A stretch of 64,000 nucleotides of DNA. Origin: an uncultured Armatimonadetes bacterium. GTDB lineage: Bacteria; Armatimonadota; UBA5829; DTJY01. Below, one piece after another: positions 5,173-12,527 of the stretch (the stretch's first letter is position 1; the number at the start of each line of letters is the position of its first letter). Position numbers and translations under genes: made by a program. Below the pieces are notes generated by a model. It saw nothing but the letters and a program-made list of their open reading frames with translations, ran no database searches and was not told the origin of the DNA. The stretch spans positions 3,488,001 through 3,552,000 of the forward strand of contig OY970325.1 of NCBI GenBank assembly GCA_963717145.1, in the 5' to 3' direction.

Positions 5173-6615
5173 ATGGCGAAGGTTACGCTTATCAACCCGA
5201 ATCGGATGAAGCCGGCGGTGGCGCCGATCGCGCTCGACTACATCGCGGACTGGCTCGATATCGCCGGGCATGAGGTCTCGATCCTCGACCTCTGCTTCTC
5301 TCAGGACTGGGGCGCAGATGTCGATGCCTACTTCGCCGACTGCCAGCCCGACCTCATCGGCGTCACGATCCGGAACACCGACGACTGCTACTTCGCGAGC
5401 CGCGACTTCTTCGTCCCCTACTACAAGGAGGTCATCGACCGCATCAGGTCGCAGACGCCCGCCCCGATCGTGCTCGGAGGCGCGGGACTCTCGGTCGTCC
5501 CCGAGGCGATCCTGGAGTTCACCGGCGCGGACTATGCGATCGCCGGCGACGGCGAGGTATCGATGCCCCTGCTGCTTCACTGCATCGCTTTCGACCTGCC
5601 GATATCCCCGTGCTGGGGGATCGTCTGCCGGACGCCAGAGGGTATCCACACCGAGCCGCCGATGTGGATCAACGTACTGACCCATTCACCGCGAACCAGG
5701 CGCTGGCTCGACAACAAGCGCTACTTCAACGAAGGCGGTCAGGCAGGGATCGAGACCAAGCGCGGGTGCGACCGCAAGTGCATCTTCTGCGCGGATCCCA
5801 TCGGCAAGGGAACCGAGTGCCGTCTGAGGCCCCCGGCGGGCGTCGTGTCGGAGATCAAGGCGCTGCTCGACCAGGAGATCGATGTCTACCACCTCTGCGA
5901 CTGCGAGTTCAATATCCCGATCTCACATGCGGAGGACGTATGCCGGGCGATCATCGAGGCGGGCCTCGGGGAGAGAATCCGTTGGTACACGTATGCCAAC
6001 CCCAAGCCGTTCACCGACGAACTCGCCGACCTCATGGTGCGCGCCGGATGCCGGGGGATCGACTTCGGCGCGGATTCCGGCGACGACAAGGTCCTGCGCT
6101 CGCTCGGGCGCGACTTCAACTCGGACGACGTGCGCCGAACCGCCGAGATCTGCCATCGCCACGGGATCACCTTCATGTACGACCTGCTCATCGGCGGCCC
6201 GGCGGAGACGAATGAGTCCGTCAAGCGCACGATCGACCTCATGAAGCGGATCGAGCCGGACCGCGTCGGCGTCTCGATCGGCGTGCGGGTCTACAACGGC
6301 ACGGCGCTCGGGGAGATGGTTCGCAGGGCGGGTGTCTCGGCCTCGAACCCGACGCTCCATGGGACCATCGAGGGGAACGAGAGCTTCCTCGCGCCGATCT
6401 ATTACCTCTCGCCGGCGGTGGGGATGGAGGTCTTCGGCTTCGTGGACGAACTCATCGGCGGCGACCCCCGCTTCCTGCATGCCTCGCCCGCGGAACTCGA
6501 GGGCAACTACAACTACAACGACAACACAGTGCTCGTCGACGCGATCCGCCAGGGCTTCCGAGGCGCGTTCTGGGACATCCTCCGCCGGGTACAGGCGGGT
6601 GAAGAACCTTCCTAG
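5173..6615 (+). CDS. B12-binding-domain radical SAM protein
   Basis: N-terminal cobalamin-binding-like region; TKRGCDRKCIFC (CxxxCxxC). Confidence 0.9.
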   Translation: MAKVTLINPNRMKPAVAPIALDYIADWLDIAGHEVSILDLCFSQDWGADVDAYFADCQPDLIGVTIRNTDDCYFASRDFFVPYYKEVIDRIRSQTPAPIVLGGAGLSVVPEAILEFTGADYAIAGDGEVSMPLLLHCIAFDLPISPCWGIVCRTPEGIHTEPPMWINVLTHSPRTRRWLDNKRYFNEGGQAGIETKRGCDRKCIFCADPIGKGTECRLRPPAGVVSEIKALLDQEIDVYHLCDCEFNIPISHAEDVCRAIIEAGLGERIRWYTYANPKPFTDELADLMVRAGCRGIDFGADSGDDKVLRSLGRDFNSDDVRRTAEICHRHGITFMYDLLIGGPAETNESVKRTIDLMKRIEPDRVGVSIGVRVYNGTALGEMVRRAGVSASNPTLHGTIEGNESFLAPIYYLSPAVGMEVFGFVDELIGGDPRFLHASPAELEGNYNYNDNTVLVDAIRQGFRGAFWDILRRVQAGEEPS

Positions 6616-6620
6616 CAGCC

Positions 6621-6718
6621 CCGCCTAATCCTGAGTGCGCCTCTGGGCGTGTAACGAAGCACGGTGGAATGAGGCCGTCCTTCGTTACACGCCCAGAGGC
6701 GCACTCAGGATTAGGCGG
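6621..6718. repeat. Long perfect inverted repeat with 39-bp arms (CCTGAG...CGAAG family)
   Basis: 6621-6659 is the exact reverse complement of 6680-6718; related elements at 10126 and 12545. Confidence 0.9.
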
Positions 6719-6772: not shown

Positions 6773-6798
6773 ATCGGTAAACTCGGTGGAGCGGCACT

Positions 6799-7884
6799 GT
6801 GAAAACGAGATACCTTCTTCTCTGCGCACTGGTCGTGGCGATCGGTGGATCCATCTTCTGTGCGGGTACCTGGTTCGGCAGGCGACAGGCGCCCCGGCAG
6901 ATGCCCGGAACAGTCCGCGCACAGTCCCCCAAGAGCACCAAGCAGCCTCCCAAGCCTGAGCATCCATCCGCCAAGCCTACCCCTGAAGCGACCAAACCGG
7001 CAGCCGGGCCTTCCCATCCCAGAGCCCGGAGCACCGTCAAGGTAACCGTCAGCGACAAGGAATACGCACGCGGGAAGGTGATCGATCCCTCGGGCAAGGC
7101 GCTCGCGGGGGCCGAGATCACGATCGGCGGCGCGTGGGTGACTCACGCCGTTACAGACTCCGATGGCAAGTTCCGGATCGAGGTCCCGCAGCTCGAATGG
7201 AAGCCTGGCGGGTGAGGCCCCCAGGGATGCACGGCCGGTTCGGTCGTGATGCATATCGAGCACACGGAGAAGAAGCTGGGCTTCGTCCAGGAGATCGATC
7301 GCTACCAACTCATCGGCAAGGGGATCACGGTCAAAGCCGTCCCCGCCCACTCGCCGAAGGTCACTGTCATGGACGTCTGGTGCAAGCCGATTCCCAATGC
7401 GGAGATATGGCTGCGTGAGTTCTACGGCCTGGGCTGGGATGACATACGATGCGGCCAGACCGATGCGAACGGCGAGTACGTCGTCCCCGCGGTCTATGTT
7501 GGCGGGAAGTATGCGTTCCGTGCGGTCGTTCCGGGGTTCTATGGCTATGGGTCCGGCGGGCCGTGCGTCGGCAGCGAGAACTGGATCGACAATGTCGAGG
7601 TCATGCTGGACGCCGCGGAGCACGAGCGCAAGGGCAAGGTGGTGGATGACAAGGGCAAGCCGATCGCGGGCTTCCGGGTCTACACCGACTTCGGGCCGGA
7701 AGCGATCACGGACGCAAAGGGCGAGTTCCTGCTGACCTCGATGCCGAAGGGCCTGGTGATCATCCAAGCACGGAAGGGCGACGTGTGGGGCAGCAATTTC
7801 ATCAAGTCCCGAGTGCTCGACCCCGACAAAAACCCCATCAGAGTCAGCAAGCTCCCTCCCGGCTTCGACCCCGAGAAGTGGTGA
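6799..7884 (+). CDS. Secreted or membrane-anchored protein with carboxypeptidase-regulatory-like (transthyretin-like) repeats; in-frame TGA at codon 139, candidate selenoprotein
   Basis: ORFs 6799-7215 and 7246-7884 share a frame and are separated only by TGA (7213-7215). N-terminal hydrophobic helix, Pro/Lys linker, and GKVxDxxGKP...TDxxGxF repeats on both sides of the TGA. Confidence 0.7.
7227..7254 (+). promoter_or_regulatory. Candidate bacterial SECIS hairpin
   Basis: ATGCACGGCCG-GTT-CGGTCGTGATGCAT; the stem starts 11 nt after the TGA and has a G-first apical loop. Confidence 0.55.
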
Positions 7885-7909
7885 TATGGCAAGGAAAGGA
7901 AGACTCGCA

Positions 7910-10108
7910 ATGAAGATCATCAGGGCATCTCTGGTTCTCGGTCTGGTCTGCGCGGCCTGGTTCCTGCTCGTGGGACAGCGTCCCACTTCGGCCGCGTCGT
8001 TCATCTCGACCGGCGACGGCGGCTGGGAGTGGGTGAAGCCGACGCCCAGCGTGCAGAACTGGCATGCGCTCTTCTTCCTCGACGACAAGACCGGATGGGT
8101 TGTCGGGTGGGACTGCGCCATCCTGAAGACGACCGACGGCGGGAAGCACTGGGCGCCGCAGGGACCGAGGATTCGAAGAGGCCTGGACTCGGTCTTCTTT
8201 ACCGATACGGACCACGGCTGGGCCGCCGGCGAGGGCTTCGAGGGTCGCGATGCCGTCATCCTCAAGACCGACAACGGCGGCGCCACCTGGCGAGTCGTTT
8301 ATGAGAATGAGAGCGCGGGCCTGCACTCGATATTCTTTGTAAACAATATGGTCGGCTGGGCGGTTGGACGCGATAGCACCATCCTGAAGACCACGGATGG
8401 CGGCGAGAACTGGTTCAGACAGGACTGCGGTGTTCCCTTGCAGGACAAGGGCTTCCGATCCTTTGAGGGAGTCTCTTTCCTGAACGAGCGCACTGGCTGT
8501 CTGGTGGCGAATATCAACGGAGGGGTGGATGTCTACAGGACAACAGACGGCGGCGAAAGCTGGACGCACAAACCCATTCAGGCTGAGGGCCATCCCCGCA
8601 GCATGCAATTCGCCGATGCCAACACCGGCTGGATTCTCACAGGGGCGGTTATCCTCCGAACGACTGACGGCGGCAAGACCTGGTCGGAGATCAGTCTCGA
8701 CAAGGTGATCCCTCCCGACGAGAGGTTTGCGGGAAACAGGATACTCGAGAGCTTCCATTTCTGCGACGCGCGGAACGGTATGGCAGCCACCAACGGTGGC
8801 GCGGTACTGCGCACCAGAGATGGTGGCAAGACATGGGTATTGACCCCCAATGTCGCCGGCGAGACGGTTTCCAGTGCCCATGTGCACATGGTAGATGAGA
8901 AGAACGCATGGGCAGCGGGATACGCCGGCCAGATGATGCGGACATCGGATGGCGGAATGACATGGGAGTCGTTGTCGTCGGGCAGGGACGATTTCACGGC
9001 CCGCGTTTTCTTCGTCAGTGCGACGGTGGGCTGGGCGGTCGGCTCGATCGAGAACTCACGGGGTCCTGGCGGGGTCTTGCTCAAGACTCAGGATGGTGGG
9101 CTGACTTGGAACCGGCATCCTGTGAAGCAATCGAATCGCCTCAATGTCCCCTTCTTCCTGGACACAGAGCTAGGCTGGGTTACCACGACCGAGGGCAATG
9201 TCCTCAAGACGACGGATGGCGGAGCGACCTGGCAGGTGCAGTATACGGGTGTGAAGAGCCACCTTACTGGGGTGCACTTCTTGGATTCCCTTGACGGCTG
9301 GGGCGTGGGAGTGGACGGGGTCATCATCCACACTTCCGATGGAGGCAAGACCTGGACCAGACTCGAATCCCAAACGATGGACGGTCTCTCCGGCGTATAC
9401 TTTGCTGACGAGAGAACAGGCTGGGTCTGCGGAAAGAACGGCCGGATCATGAAGACTGCAGACGGTGGCAAGACCTGGAAACGCCAGCCGACTGGAACGG
9501 TGGACTTCCTGGCGGACATGCATTTCATGGACGAGAAGACCGGCTGGGTCTCCGGCGCAAAGGGCCGTATCCTCAAGACGACGGATGGTAGCGAGACGTG
9601 GACACCACAGAAGTCGGGGAAAGAGGAACAGATCACCGGGATCAGCTTCATCAACGAGAGCGAAGGTTGGGGCGTCGGTCTCGGCACAACAGTGGCGCAT
9701 ACGGTGGACGGTGGGCAGACGTGGTCGGCTCAGGATTATGGGACTTGGAACGGGGTATGGGATGTCGGCTTCACCGATCGAGACAACGGCGTGGCGGTCG
9801 GCGGGCCGATTATCCTCCGCACGACGACGGGCGGACTGCCCGGCGCGGTCTGGGCGAAGAAGCAGGAGGACGGGAAGCCTGCGAACTTCGGCCATCTCGT
9901 GATCACGAAGAAGTCCGACGGCTACCTCCTCGCTGAGCACCCGGACTCACGGGTCGGCATCCACATCAAGACCGCCGACTCGAAGCCAAACGTCGGCGAC
10001 TACATCTACATCCACGGCAAGATCGCCACCGAGAACGGCGAGAAGATCATCGCCGCCGACTCGATCGACATCATGTGCGCCGGCTGGGGCATCCTCCCGG
10101 AGAAGTAG
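7910..10108 (+). CDS. Secreted Ycf48-like / BNR (Asp-box) repeat beta-propeller protein, paralogue 1
   Basis: Signal peptide; about 14 GW.vG...ilkTtDGG.tW repeats; about 90-aa C-terminal tail domain. Confidence 0.9.
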   Translation: MKIIRASLVLGLVCAAWFLLVGQRPTSAASFISTGDGGWEWVKPTPSVQNWHALFFLDDKTGWVVGWDCAILKTTDGGKHWAPQGPRIRRGLDSVFFTDTDHGWAAGEGFEGRDAVILKTDNGGATWRVVYENESAGLHSIFFVNNMVGWAVGRDSTILKTTDGGENWFRQDCGVPLQDKGFRSFEGVSFLNERTGCLVANINGGVDVYRTTDGGESWTHKPIQAEGHPRSMQFADANTGWILTGAVILRTTDGGKTWSEISLDKVIPPDERFAGNRILESFHFCDARNGMAATNGGAVLRTRDGGKTWVLTPNVAGETVSSAHVHMVDEKNAWAAGYAGQMMRTSDGGMTWESLSSGRDDFTARVFFVSATVGWAVGSIENSRGPGGVLLKTQDGGLTWNRHPVKQSNRLNVPFFLDTELGWVTTTEGNVLKTTDGGATWQVQYTGVKSHLTGVHFLDSLDGWGVGVDGVIIHTSDGGKTWTRLESQTMDGLSGVYFADERTGWVCGKNGRIMKTADGGKTWKRQPTGTVDFLADMHFMDEKTGWVSGAKGRILKTTDGSETWTPQKSGKEEQITGISFINESEGWGVGLGTTVAHTVDGGQTWSAQDYGTWNGVWDVGFTDRDNGVAVGGPIILRTTTGGLPGAVWAKKQEDGKPANFGHLVITKKSDGYLLAEHPDSRVGIHIKTADSKPNVGDYIYIHGKIATENGEKIIAADSIDIMCAGWGILPEK

Positions 10109-10309: not shown

Positions 10310-12527
10310 ATGCGCTATACATGGAGGACCTTGGCAATCGTCGCCGCCCTGGCTGCCGTGACGATGCTTTTCATCTCACATAACTTCGATGGCGGCGCCA
10401 TGCGTCTCGACCGGCGACGGCGGATGGGAGCACATGAAGCCCACACCGACGAGCCAGCAGTGGACGGCGGTACACTTCATCGACGACAAGACAGGTTGGG
10501 TAGTCGGCCCCCACTTCAACATGCTGAAGACCACCGACGGCGGCAAGAACTGGGCCCCGCAGGGATACACCCTCGACAAGTTCGCATACGACATCCATTT
10601 TTCCGACAAGGATCACGGCTGCGTGGTCGGCAGCGGAGGGAACGCCAATCCGGATGGCATCATCCTCAAGACGTCGAACGGCGGAGCCACATGGGAGAAG
10701 GTGCTCGACGGCAAGGTGGACGGCCTCCGATCGGTCTGTTTCGCGAACAACAACATCGGCTGGGCAGTCGGCGGGCAGACCAGCCGAGAGGGCATCATCC
10801 TGAAGACCACCGATGGGGGCGCAACGTGGTTCGAGCAGGACTGTCCGCTTTCTGTTTCCCTCAAGGCGCAAGACAAGCGGTCATTCGTAGGAGTATCGTT
10901 CCCGGATGAGAAGACCGGTTGGGTACTGGCAGGCGTCGGGGGGATGGTCCATCTCTACAAGACGAATGATGGAGGAATGACCTGGTCACACGCATCCCCC
11001 ACGGCCAAGGGATATCCCGTAGGTATCCAGTTCCTGGATGCCAACACCGGCTGGATTCTTGCCCACCAGGCCATCCTCCGGACGACCGATGGCGGCAGGA
11101 GTTGGACCGAGCACCAGTTCGCCGACGTCACTGATGGATGTCACTTCTCTGACGCGCTGAACGGCATCGTATTGATGAATTTCGGCAGCAAGGTGATGCG
11201 CACTCGAGACGGAGGAAAGACCTGGAACCTGGTAACGGGGGCGAAACCGTCCGGATTCAGCCCGGATGTCTGTATGGCCGACCAGAAGACCGGCTGGGTT
11301 GTGGGAGATCAGGTGATACTCCGAACATCTGATGGCGGCTCGACCTGGCAGTCCCAGACCACGCCTCACGGGGACAATGTATACGGTATTCACTACGTCA
11401 ACTCTAAGGTCGCCTGTGCCGTCGGTTACGCCCAGACCGAGTCCGGGCCCACTTGCCTCGTGCTCAACACTGAAGACAACTGGCTGACCTGGAGCCGGCA
11501 GCTTCTCCCGGTGAAGGGCGGGCTCTCCAAGCTCTATTTCGTAGATGCGAACACCGGCTGGGCATGCGGTCCAACCGGCATGATCGTCGCTACCAAAGAT
11601 GGTGGAAAGACCTGGCAGGCCCAGGATACCGGAACGGGCAGCGCTTTCGAGGGCCTGTATTTCCTCGATTCGCAGACCGGCTGGGCAATCGGTCAGGAAG
11701 GCGCGCTGGTAGCGACATCCGACGGCGGGGCGACCTGGACCAAGCTCAGCACCGGCACGATGGATGACATGGCCGGCGTGTTCTTCCTCGATAAGAACAC
11801 CGGTTGGATCAGTGGATTGAAAGGCCGAATAATGAAGACCACGGACGGCGGCAGAACGTGGAAGCGCCAGCCCACCGGCACGACGGCGGGCGTGTCCGAT
11901 GTCTTCTTTGCAGATGAGAGAACCGGCTGGGCCGCGGGAGATGGCACTATCGCGGAGAAAAGAGGCGGCATCCTGCTCAGGACCATCGATGGCGGCAACA
12001 CGTGGACCAAGCAGGATACCGGGATCAAGGATGGCGAGCCGAACACATTCTGGGTTATTCGGTTTCTCAACCAAAAGGAAGGCTGGATCGTGGGCGGCGC
12101 GTTGATTCATACTTCGGACGGCGGACGGAGCTGGAGACCCCAGGCTCCAGGGATGCTTGGGACCTGGGATGTGCAATTCGCCGATGAGGACAACGGATGC
12201 GCTGTTGGCCGGGATGAGATCGTTCGCACGACGACCGGCGGGCACCCGGGCGCGGTCTGGGCGAAGAAGCAGGCGGATGGGAAAGATGCCAACTTCGGGC
12301 ACCTGGTGGTCACGAAGAGGTCGGAGGGCTACCTCCTCGCCGAGCACCCGGACTCACGCATCGGCATCCACGTCAAGGCTTCGGATGCCAAGCCCAATGT
12401 CGGCGACTACATCTACATCCACGGCAAGATCGCCACCGAGGACGGCGAGAAGATCATCGCCGCCGACTCGATCGACATCATGTGCGCCGGATGGGGCATC
12501 CTGCCGGAGAAGGGTGCTGGGTTGTAG
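10310..12527 (+). CDS. Secreted Ycf48-like / BNR repeat beta-propeller protein, paralogue 2 (frameshift near 10385)
   Basis: The signal peptide MRYTWRTLAIVAALAA is in one frame and the body (STGDGGWE...) in another; colinear with paralogue 1. Confidence 0.85.

Follow-up and report, generated by a model that had tools for sequence, protein, structure and literature searches.

Introduction

Selenoproteins of the DUF1573 and TonB-dependent receptor kinds lie outside the classic cytoplasmic redox enzymes. Both are listed as predicted selenoproteins in the table of a 2026 review, where UGC is the motif given for the DUF1573 (PF07610) protein and FCYXU the type given for the TonB-dependent receptor, and the same review states that Cys-containing homologues exist for almost every selenoprotein (PMC13188914). 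It also sets out a model of the bacterial selenocysteine insertion sequence (SECIS), with a stem of 4–16 bp, a loop of 3–9 nt in which G stands in the first two positions and in most cases precedes G or U, 16–37 nt between UGA and loop, and a minimum free energy no higher than −7.5 kcal/mol (PMC13188914). Here we analyze a stretch of 64,000 nucleotides (the window) from the genome of an uncultured Armatimonadetes bacterium (assembly GCA_963717145.1, contig OY970325.1, positions 3,488,001 to 3,552,000), in which the gene at window positions 6799–7884 is a candidate for a further selenoprotein with an unusual fold. The host genome is a single contig of 5.37 Mb and is labelled G000 in the comparisons below.

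The candidate resembles the bacterial genes that depend on SelB and a SECIS, as represented by fdhA and selD of the same host, in its UGA and in a short GC-rich hairpin that lies within 16–37 nt of it and has a loop beginning with G and then G or U. It differs from fdhA and selD in having a repeated CarboxypepD_reg sandwich instead of a known redox enzyme fold, with the putative selenocysteine (Sec) placed in an inserted surface loop. All three of its domains score as members of the CarboxypepD_reg-like families (PF13620/PF13715). In ordinary members of these families the loop between strands 4 and 5 is short, variable and uninterrupted, whereas that of the candidate carries GG-U-GPxGC together with the SECIS-like hairpin. 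The DUF1573 and TonB-dependent receptor selenoproteins belong to other Pfam or NCBIfam families and have other Sec motifs. In contrast to selenoproteins at large, the Cys counterparts of the candidate are limited to one distant protein.

No selenoprotein model was matched by the candidate protein in a scan of NCBIfam release 20.0. PF13620, PF13715 and UxxxxC are absent from the text of the 2026 review (PMC13188914), and the word "carboxypeptidase" is absent from PMC13188914, PMC13326102 and PMC12013277 (the review and the BSepDB and deep-Sep papers). Full-text searches yielded nothing joining selenoprotein or selenocysteine with carboxypeptidase regulatory or CarboxypepD_reg, and nothing related to selenoproteins in Armatimonadetes was found in the literature searched. 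A preliminary description of this locus, made by a model from the letters of the DNA, had not recognized the family among selenoproteins, and it is indeed absent from the catalogues checked. It would be a new selenoprotein family within the known SECIS/SelB kind, for which a prior description in BSepDB table S2 or in two Haft family papers is possible. Bacterial selenoproteins are discovered largely through their pairing with Cys forms and through known redox folds, so that a near-always-Sec, probably exported sandwich with a non-enzymatic look is easily missed. With this family, selenium use would be charted in the understudied Armatimonadota too, here from wastewater- or sludge-type metagenomes, and a possible selenium-dependent function of the cell envelope is indicated.

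A Single Reading Frame Interrupted by UGA

Two open reading frames (ORFs) lie in the same frame, one of 138 aa that opens with GTG and covers 6799–7215, and one that covers 7246–7884; the TGA at 7213–7215 is all that separates them. The coordinates and the 361-aa read-through translation that had been given in the preliminary description were both reproduced. When the TGA is read as U, codon 139 stands in the context ...IEVPQLEWKPGG-U-GPQGC-TAGSVVMHIEH.... From comparative sequence analysis, we consider it highly probable that this UGA is recoded to Sec by the standard SelB/SECIS route. The Sec reading had been proposed beforehand, and it is supported by the Sec machinery of the host genome, by the conservation of the TGA and by a hairpin that fits the SECIS model.

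In the mechanism that we propose, 6799–7884 would be one gene, and the hairpin at 7230–7248 would act as the SECIS by which SelB, loaded with Sec-tRNA(Sec), is brought to a ribosome that has reached the UGA. The predicted product would begin with a membrane anchor or signal peptide, continue through a disordered linker and end in three CarboxypepD_reg-like sandwiches. Sec139 would sit in the first of these, in a surface loop (GG-U-GPxGC) inserted between its strands, where it may pair with Cys144 for selenylsulfide redox chemistry or for metal binding.

Conservation of the In-Frame UGA

Eleven distinct DNA sequences were compared: G000, G006, G007a, G007b, G031a, G052a, G052b and the metagenomic L076, L078, L079 and L080. 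The TGA is found in one alignment column in all of them, across four genera plus metagenomes, which answers the question of whether homologues have TGA or Cys at codon 139 in favor of TGA wherever DNA is at hand. These TGA-bearing sequences are highly divergent, with a minimum pairwise amino-acid identity of 0.26 and a median of 0.34; individual identities are 79% for G006, 52% for G007a, 31% for G031a and G052a (from a different family) and 25% for G052b and G007b. The codon preceding the UGA is GGG in 11/11. The motif GG-U-GPxGC has its Cys at +5 in ten sequences, so that the U-x4-C motif noticed earlier holds for these ten and fails for G007b, in which the +5 Cys is missing.

Homologues were found by the read-through search in 13 of 61 related genomes. 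The TGA-bearing homologues align along their full length, with one TGA. When the search was extended with a profile to 401 genomes of the phylum, 79 of them gave matches; the seven best matches (at least 192 bits) each have exactly one TGA, and the weaker, stop-free matches do not exceed 161.6 bits. When genome contigs were scanned with a profile from a 4-row alignment, the G007 locus came up and, apart from it, just two short matches that are unrelated. The metagenome scan gave seven loci, two of which stop short of the site; the five that span it all have the TGA, and L077 duplicates G007a.

The protein databases bear the imprint of the same codon. All 11 short database proteins that match residues 86–138 terminate exactly at ...EWKPGG, despite differing N-terminal linkers, while 6 of the 11 database matches to the read-through protein are C-terminal fragments of 211–212 aa that start just past the site. 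The representatives P0015, P0017, P0018, P0026 and P0027 of other 50%-identity clusters also start right after it. Public gene calls divide the gene into two fragments in all entries looked at, and annotation pipelines should merge the two ORFs.

A sequencing error at the TGA, or a pseudogene that arose by recent inactivation, has nothing in its favor beyond the stop codon itself. The same TGA is present in 11/11 homologues from separate assemblies and is implied in 11 further protein clusters, and metagenome contigs of relatives over the site have no difference there among the entries listed. The sharing of the TGA throughout the homologues therefore excludes both forms of this explanation, to which we assign a practically negligible probability.

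It is noted that one 6.9-kb contig from a sludge metagenome is about 88% identical to the window over 7038–7976, and that no difference falls within 7204–7254 among the entries listed. These 51 nt, which contain the TGA and the hairpin, are the longest difference-free stretch among the entries listed, with 219 further entries beyond that list. Seven sequencing runs shared only small parts of their words with the window, the four looked into gave contigs of relatives alone, and no RNA data set was listed for it. Two other loci have additional stops, namely G052:C3:1193997-1194713 (locus L037) with four TGA, and G043:C6:11951-12490 (locus L073) with one TGA and one TAG off the Sec column; either may be a decayed copy or an alignment artefact.

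Coding Constraint across the UGA

A second alternative takes the UGA as a true stop between two genes, which would encode an anchored stub of 138 residues and a protein of 212 residues started from GTG 7246 or ATG 7249, possibly through termination-reinitiation. The fragments of 211–212 aa and 134–144 aa given by database gene callers, together with the GTG and ATG codons found soon past the stop, are what this arrangement would produce. However, the codons between the TGA and these starts show a coding pattern. At positions +1, +2, +4 and +5, which encode G, P, G and C, variation is synonymous only (GGC/GGT/GGG, CCC/CCT/CCG, GGA/GGC/GGG and TGC/TGT), and zero indels are found past the TGA in 11/11 sequences. 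Paralogous modules that are free of TGA run continuously over the TGA column inside single ORFs. Since the stop falls inside one β-sandwich, a two-gene arrangement would halve a domain. Inspection of the sequence by eye also found no Shine-Dalgarno-like motif ahead of the internal GTG 7246 or ATG 7249. In the long forms of the protein, the TGA stands in the middle of frames of 953 codons (G031) and 856 codons (G052), and the G031 frame opens with a signal-peptide-like N-terminus (MMRRF...). The homologues are thus not consistently two genes, as coding constraint spans the TGA and the long forms carry it mid-frame. We judge the two-gene arrangement to be very improbable.

Selenocysteine Machinery in the Host Genome and Its Relatives

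Recoding of the UGA at 7213–7215 as Sec would depend on factors encoded elsewhere in the host genome. Genes for selA (567 bits), selB (383 bits), selD (392.5 bits; G000:C1:4140327-4141253, locus L001) and tRNA-Sec (70.6 bits) are all present above curated cut-offs, and selD has its own in-frame TGA. The tRNA-Sec lies about 900 nt downstream of selA and is reported by ARAGORN as tRNA-SeC with anticodon tca, the only stop-reading anticodon among the 52 tRNAs of the genome. The tRNA scan found no tRNA in the whole 64-kb window, the tRNA-Sec being elsewhere in the genome. The gene for formate dehydrogenase alpha, fdhA, was found at 877.5 bits with one TGA (G000:C1:3205879-3207879, locus L083). A search for selA, selB, selC and selD had been suggested beforehand, and its outcome is that all of them are present, along with Sec-containing selD and fdhA.

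The reading of TGA as a sense codon throughout the genome was considered and rejected: the candidate gene and the radical SAM gene upstream of it both end in TGA, and the only tRNA with a tca anticodon is tRNA-Sec.

Sec-containing selD was also found in all four other genomes that carry the TGA gene (G006, G007, G031 and G052), and no fdhA of the host type was found in these four at E ≤1e-150. Their selenoproteomes may be small, with the candidate family possibly a main member. As a separate observation, the Sec motifs of the host's own genes are GGG-U-GCK in selD and CART-U-HAP in fdhA, and a GGG codon just before the UGA is common to selD and the candidate family.

A SECIS-Like Hairpin Downstream of the UGA

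The hairpin that follows the UGA pairs the stem strands CACGGCCG and CGGUCGUG around a GUU loop. It had been placed at 11 nt after the TGA in the preliminary description, which is borne out by an outer AUG/CAU extension that begins at 7227. A hairpin with a stem of 6–8 bp is found in 11/11 homologues, with energies of −9.1 to −12.7 kcal/mol for the hairpin alone. In nine of them the stem is of 6–7 bp and the loop, at 26 nt from the UGA, is a GGUC tetraloop; in G000 and G006 the stem is of 8 bp and the loop, at 22 nt, is GUU. The hairpin is therefore conserved in the homologues, as the preliminary description had asked, and in every one of the 11 it falls within all limits that the review gives for a bacterial SECIS (PMC13188914).

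The SECIS elements of fdhA and selD of the host genome served as positive controls. That of fdhA reads ...GGCC-GGUC(U)-GGCC..., while that of selD has an 8-bp stem and a GUU loop, as does the candidate hairpin; the loop is GUU or GUC in selD of four relatives. Hairpins of this type were searched for across the genome with a pattern defined post hoc (stem of at least 6 bp and a loop GUU, GUC, GGUC or GGUU that starts 20–34 nt after the U). They are rare, coming after 0.11% of the in-frame positions of long ORFs (932 of 849,480) and after 0.14% of TGA triplets (230 of 167,464). The genome was also scanned, in a crude way, for TGA codons that have a SECIS-like hairpin behind them and at least 30 open codons on either side. 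Both the candidate gene and fdhA were recovered among the 53 candidates; most of the others look like off-frame artefacts by eye.

Codon usage and compensatory changes were compared within the hairpin. Among 59 conserved columns of four- or six-fold degenerate codons, a single codon is used in 3/4 columns in the hairpin and in 2/55 elsewhere (Fisher p = 0.0012, with sequences that are related and a region picked after inspection). The five single-codon columns are +9 (GCG), +10 (GTC, 11/11), +12 (CTG), −1 (GGG, 11/11) and −31. Two base pairs of the hairpin have changes on both sides. Thr (ACG) at +9 occurs only alongside Val (GUG) at +11, which preserves an A-U pair, and one outer pair is swapped from G-C to C-G. 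The compact module of about 40 nt formed by the UGA and the SECIS-like hairpin over a β-strand would be a natural case of SECIS evolution inside coding sequence, with a hairpin that is re-registered in two lineages.

Weighing the Selenocysteine Reading

Several observations weigh against recoding to Sec. The folding energy of the 71-nt region is not unusual in GC-rich DNA (z = −1.0, with 30/200 dinucleotide shuffles equal). Resampling of synonymous codons over a 42-nt window likewise gave no significant folding energy, with 2/11 sequences below 0.05, and the covariation is weak (score 0.208 versus 0.168, matched by 36/500 shuffles). The register of the hairpin in G000 and G006 is shifted relative to that in the other nine sequences. 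Because the hairpin overlaps a conserved β-strand (G-A/T-V-V/A-L), the constraints on protein and RNA are confounded. It should also be mentioned that 40 of the 61 relatives, among them every one of the five that carry the TGA gene, have selB over its cut-off; its presence in the five carriers therefore discriminates little.

The residue found at the Sec site in related proteins belongs to the same side of the balance. A profile search of 1.84 billion representatives gave 51,148 relatives at E ≤0.001, of which the best 150 were examined; together with the database matches to the read-through protein they make up 160 proteins, in which the site is covered by 168 domain instances. The Sec column of these instances, a variable loop, has a gap in 46, R in 21, G in 13, A in 13 and C in 2. 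One of the two C entries comes from the query, whose U had been entered as C, so that Cys counterparts are nearly absent. A word search restricted to residues 88–190 found no Cys form. The sole GGxGPxGC motif among the 160 proteins is in P0008 (375 aa, 44% identity), which is unsplit and has Arg at the site, KPGG-R-GPKGC. The expectation of Cys at codon 139 in homologues is borne out by one distant protein, P0071, and contradicted by the Arg of P0008. Gap-free alignments place Cys171 of P0071 opposite the Sec of both G031a (E = 4e-32, with 33% identity over 207 aa) and G007b (E = 2e-16).

The Arg of P0008 bears on a third alternative, in which the UGA is leaky and is decoded by a near-cognate tRNA (Trp, Arg or Cys), perhaps aided by the hairpin, so that residue 139 is an ordinary one. 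The unsplit P0008, the rank of Arg as the commonest residue in the TGA-free column (21/168) and the lack of close Cys forms would all be compatible with this. On the other hand, the GGUC and GUU loops of the hairpins are equal to those of the fdhA and selD SECIS elements and fit the SECIS model, no suppressor tRNA besides tRNA-Sec is present among the 52, and every carrier genome uses Sec. We know of no established bacterial mechanism in which hairpin-stimulated UGA read-through is conserved over such divergence. Decoding as an ordinary residue is, in our estimation, very improbable, and recoding to Sec is the reading that we adopt.

A more far-reaching form of the Sec reading joins these features. 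The candidate would be the founding member of an obligately-Sec envelope family of Armatimonadota, in which GG-U-GPxGC is grafted on a variable loop of an Ig-like sandwich and the SECIS is made from the codons of the following strand (G-A-V-A/V-L). We advance this combination tentatively and regard it as rather unlikely as a whole. As Cys counterparts are all but missing and no residue is more frequent than Arg in the TGA-free column, the Sec codon may stem from a change of CGA to UGA and not from Cys. If the combination were true, the loop could serve in periplasmic selenylsulfide redox or in metal or chalcogen binding, working with the co-conserved BNR propeller encoded downstream, and the family may be one reason why the Sec machinery persists in relatives where no Sec-type fdhA was found.

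Protein Domains and Predicted Structure

In the Pfam scan, PF13620 (CarboxypepD_reg) matches the 361-residue protein in three stretches with 72.7 bits, against a gathering threshold of 32.3, and the position of the stop is inside the first of them. An AlphaFold2 model was built from a 7-row alignment, with a mean predicted local distance difference test (pLDDT) score of 67.7 and a predicted template modelling (pTM) score of 0.56. It consists of a helix (residues 2–25), a disordered segment (26–85) and then three sandwiches. The linker of residues 26–85 is rich in Pro, Lys and Ala, and pLDDT is <50 for residues 20–85. U139 is in a low-confidence loop of residues 134–143, between strands 124–129 and 148–154 of the first sandwich. 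That the stop lies within a repeated β-sandwich domain, as had been noticed from the translation, is borne out by Pfam, by the TGA-free paralogues and by the AlphaFold model.

The protein presumably faces the periplasm. It had been described as secreted or exported; the hydrophobic N-terminal helix agrees with this, although a membrane anchor is at least as likely. The putative Sec in an exposed loop, in most cases with a Cys five residues further on, combined with an anchor or signal at the N-terminus, suggests an envelope site for selenylsulfide redox or for the binding of soft metals or chalcogens.

Two other readings of the protein were rejected. A lipoprotein is not indicated when the sequence is inspected by eye, as there is no lipobox and the Cys of the N-terminal helix is missing in G006. 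CGEQ is a thioester motif, and a thioester-type reading of "UGPQ" was considered; the Gln position is K, T, S or P in other members, and this reading was therefore dropped.

The third domain (residues 272–311, window 7612–7731) has a sub-threshold match of 31.8 bits to TIGR04134, a radical SAM-associated putative lipoprotein family with a cut-off of 39.8. This match covers the third domain and not the Sec loop, and the radical SAM neighbor is not kept in G007. Its co-occurrence with the B12-binding radical SAM gene upstream may be a coincidence or a hint of a functional link.

Gene Neighborhood

The positions of the gene, of its elements and of the two flanking genes are collected in Table 1.

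Table 1. Features of the candidate selenoprotein locus, in window coordinates
Feature	Position	Strand	Remarks
B12-binding radical SAM gene	5173..6615	+	Pfam PF04055 and PF02310; upstream neighbor
Shine-Dalgarno-like GGTGGAG	6785..6791	+	7 nt 5' of the GTG start; authors' reading of the sequence, no tool prediction
Candidate selenoprotein coding sequence, 361 residues	6799..7884	+	GTG start, predicted Sec codon 139, terminal TGA 7882-7884; three CarboxypepD_reg-like β-sandwich domains
N-terminal hydrophobic helix, residues 2-25	6802..6873	+	AlphaFold2 model; probable signal anchor or uncleaved signal peptide, putative topology
In-frame UGA, predicted Sec U139 in the loop motif GG-U-GPQGC	7213..7215	+	TGA conservation in homologues
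SECIS-like hairpin, 8-bp stem 7230-7237/7241-7248, GUU apical loop 7238-7240	7230..7248	+	UGA-to-loop distance 22 nt; -11.0 kcal/mol alone
BNR/Ycf48-like β-propeller gene, 740 aa	7886..10108	+	PF14870, 198 bits; ATG 1 nt past the stop of the selenoprotein gene

The adjacency of the selenoprotein gene and the BNR propeller gene is kept in G006, G007, L076, L079 and L080, and the candidate protein possibly acts with this propeller. A second BNR/Ycf48-like propeller gene is found at 10389–12527 (712 aa, PF14870, 184.6 bits), so that the candidate gene heads a run of two paralogues. A radical SAM gene is upstream in G006 and L076 only, and not in G007; it is probably outside the selenoprotein gene unit. 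The other neighbors, which comprise a weak N6_Mtase (DNA methylase) match, a URO-D-like protein, DAHP synthase, a GFO/IDH/MocA oxidoreductase and YebC, give no functional hint.

The interval that separates the radical SAM gene from the candidate gene contains a near-perfect inverted repeat at 6621–6718 (−95.6 kcal/mol), each arm of which is about 39 bp long. Possible readings of it are a strong terminator and a small palindromic element; a 20-nt seed of its arm has one more copy in the genome.

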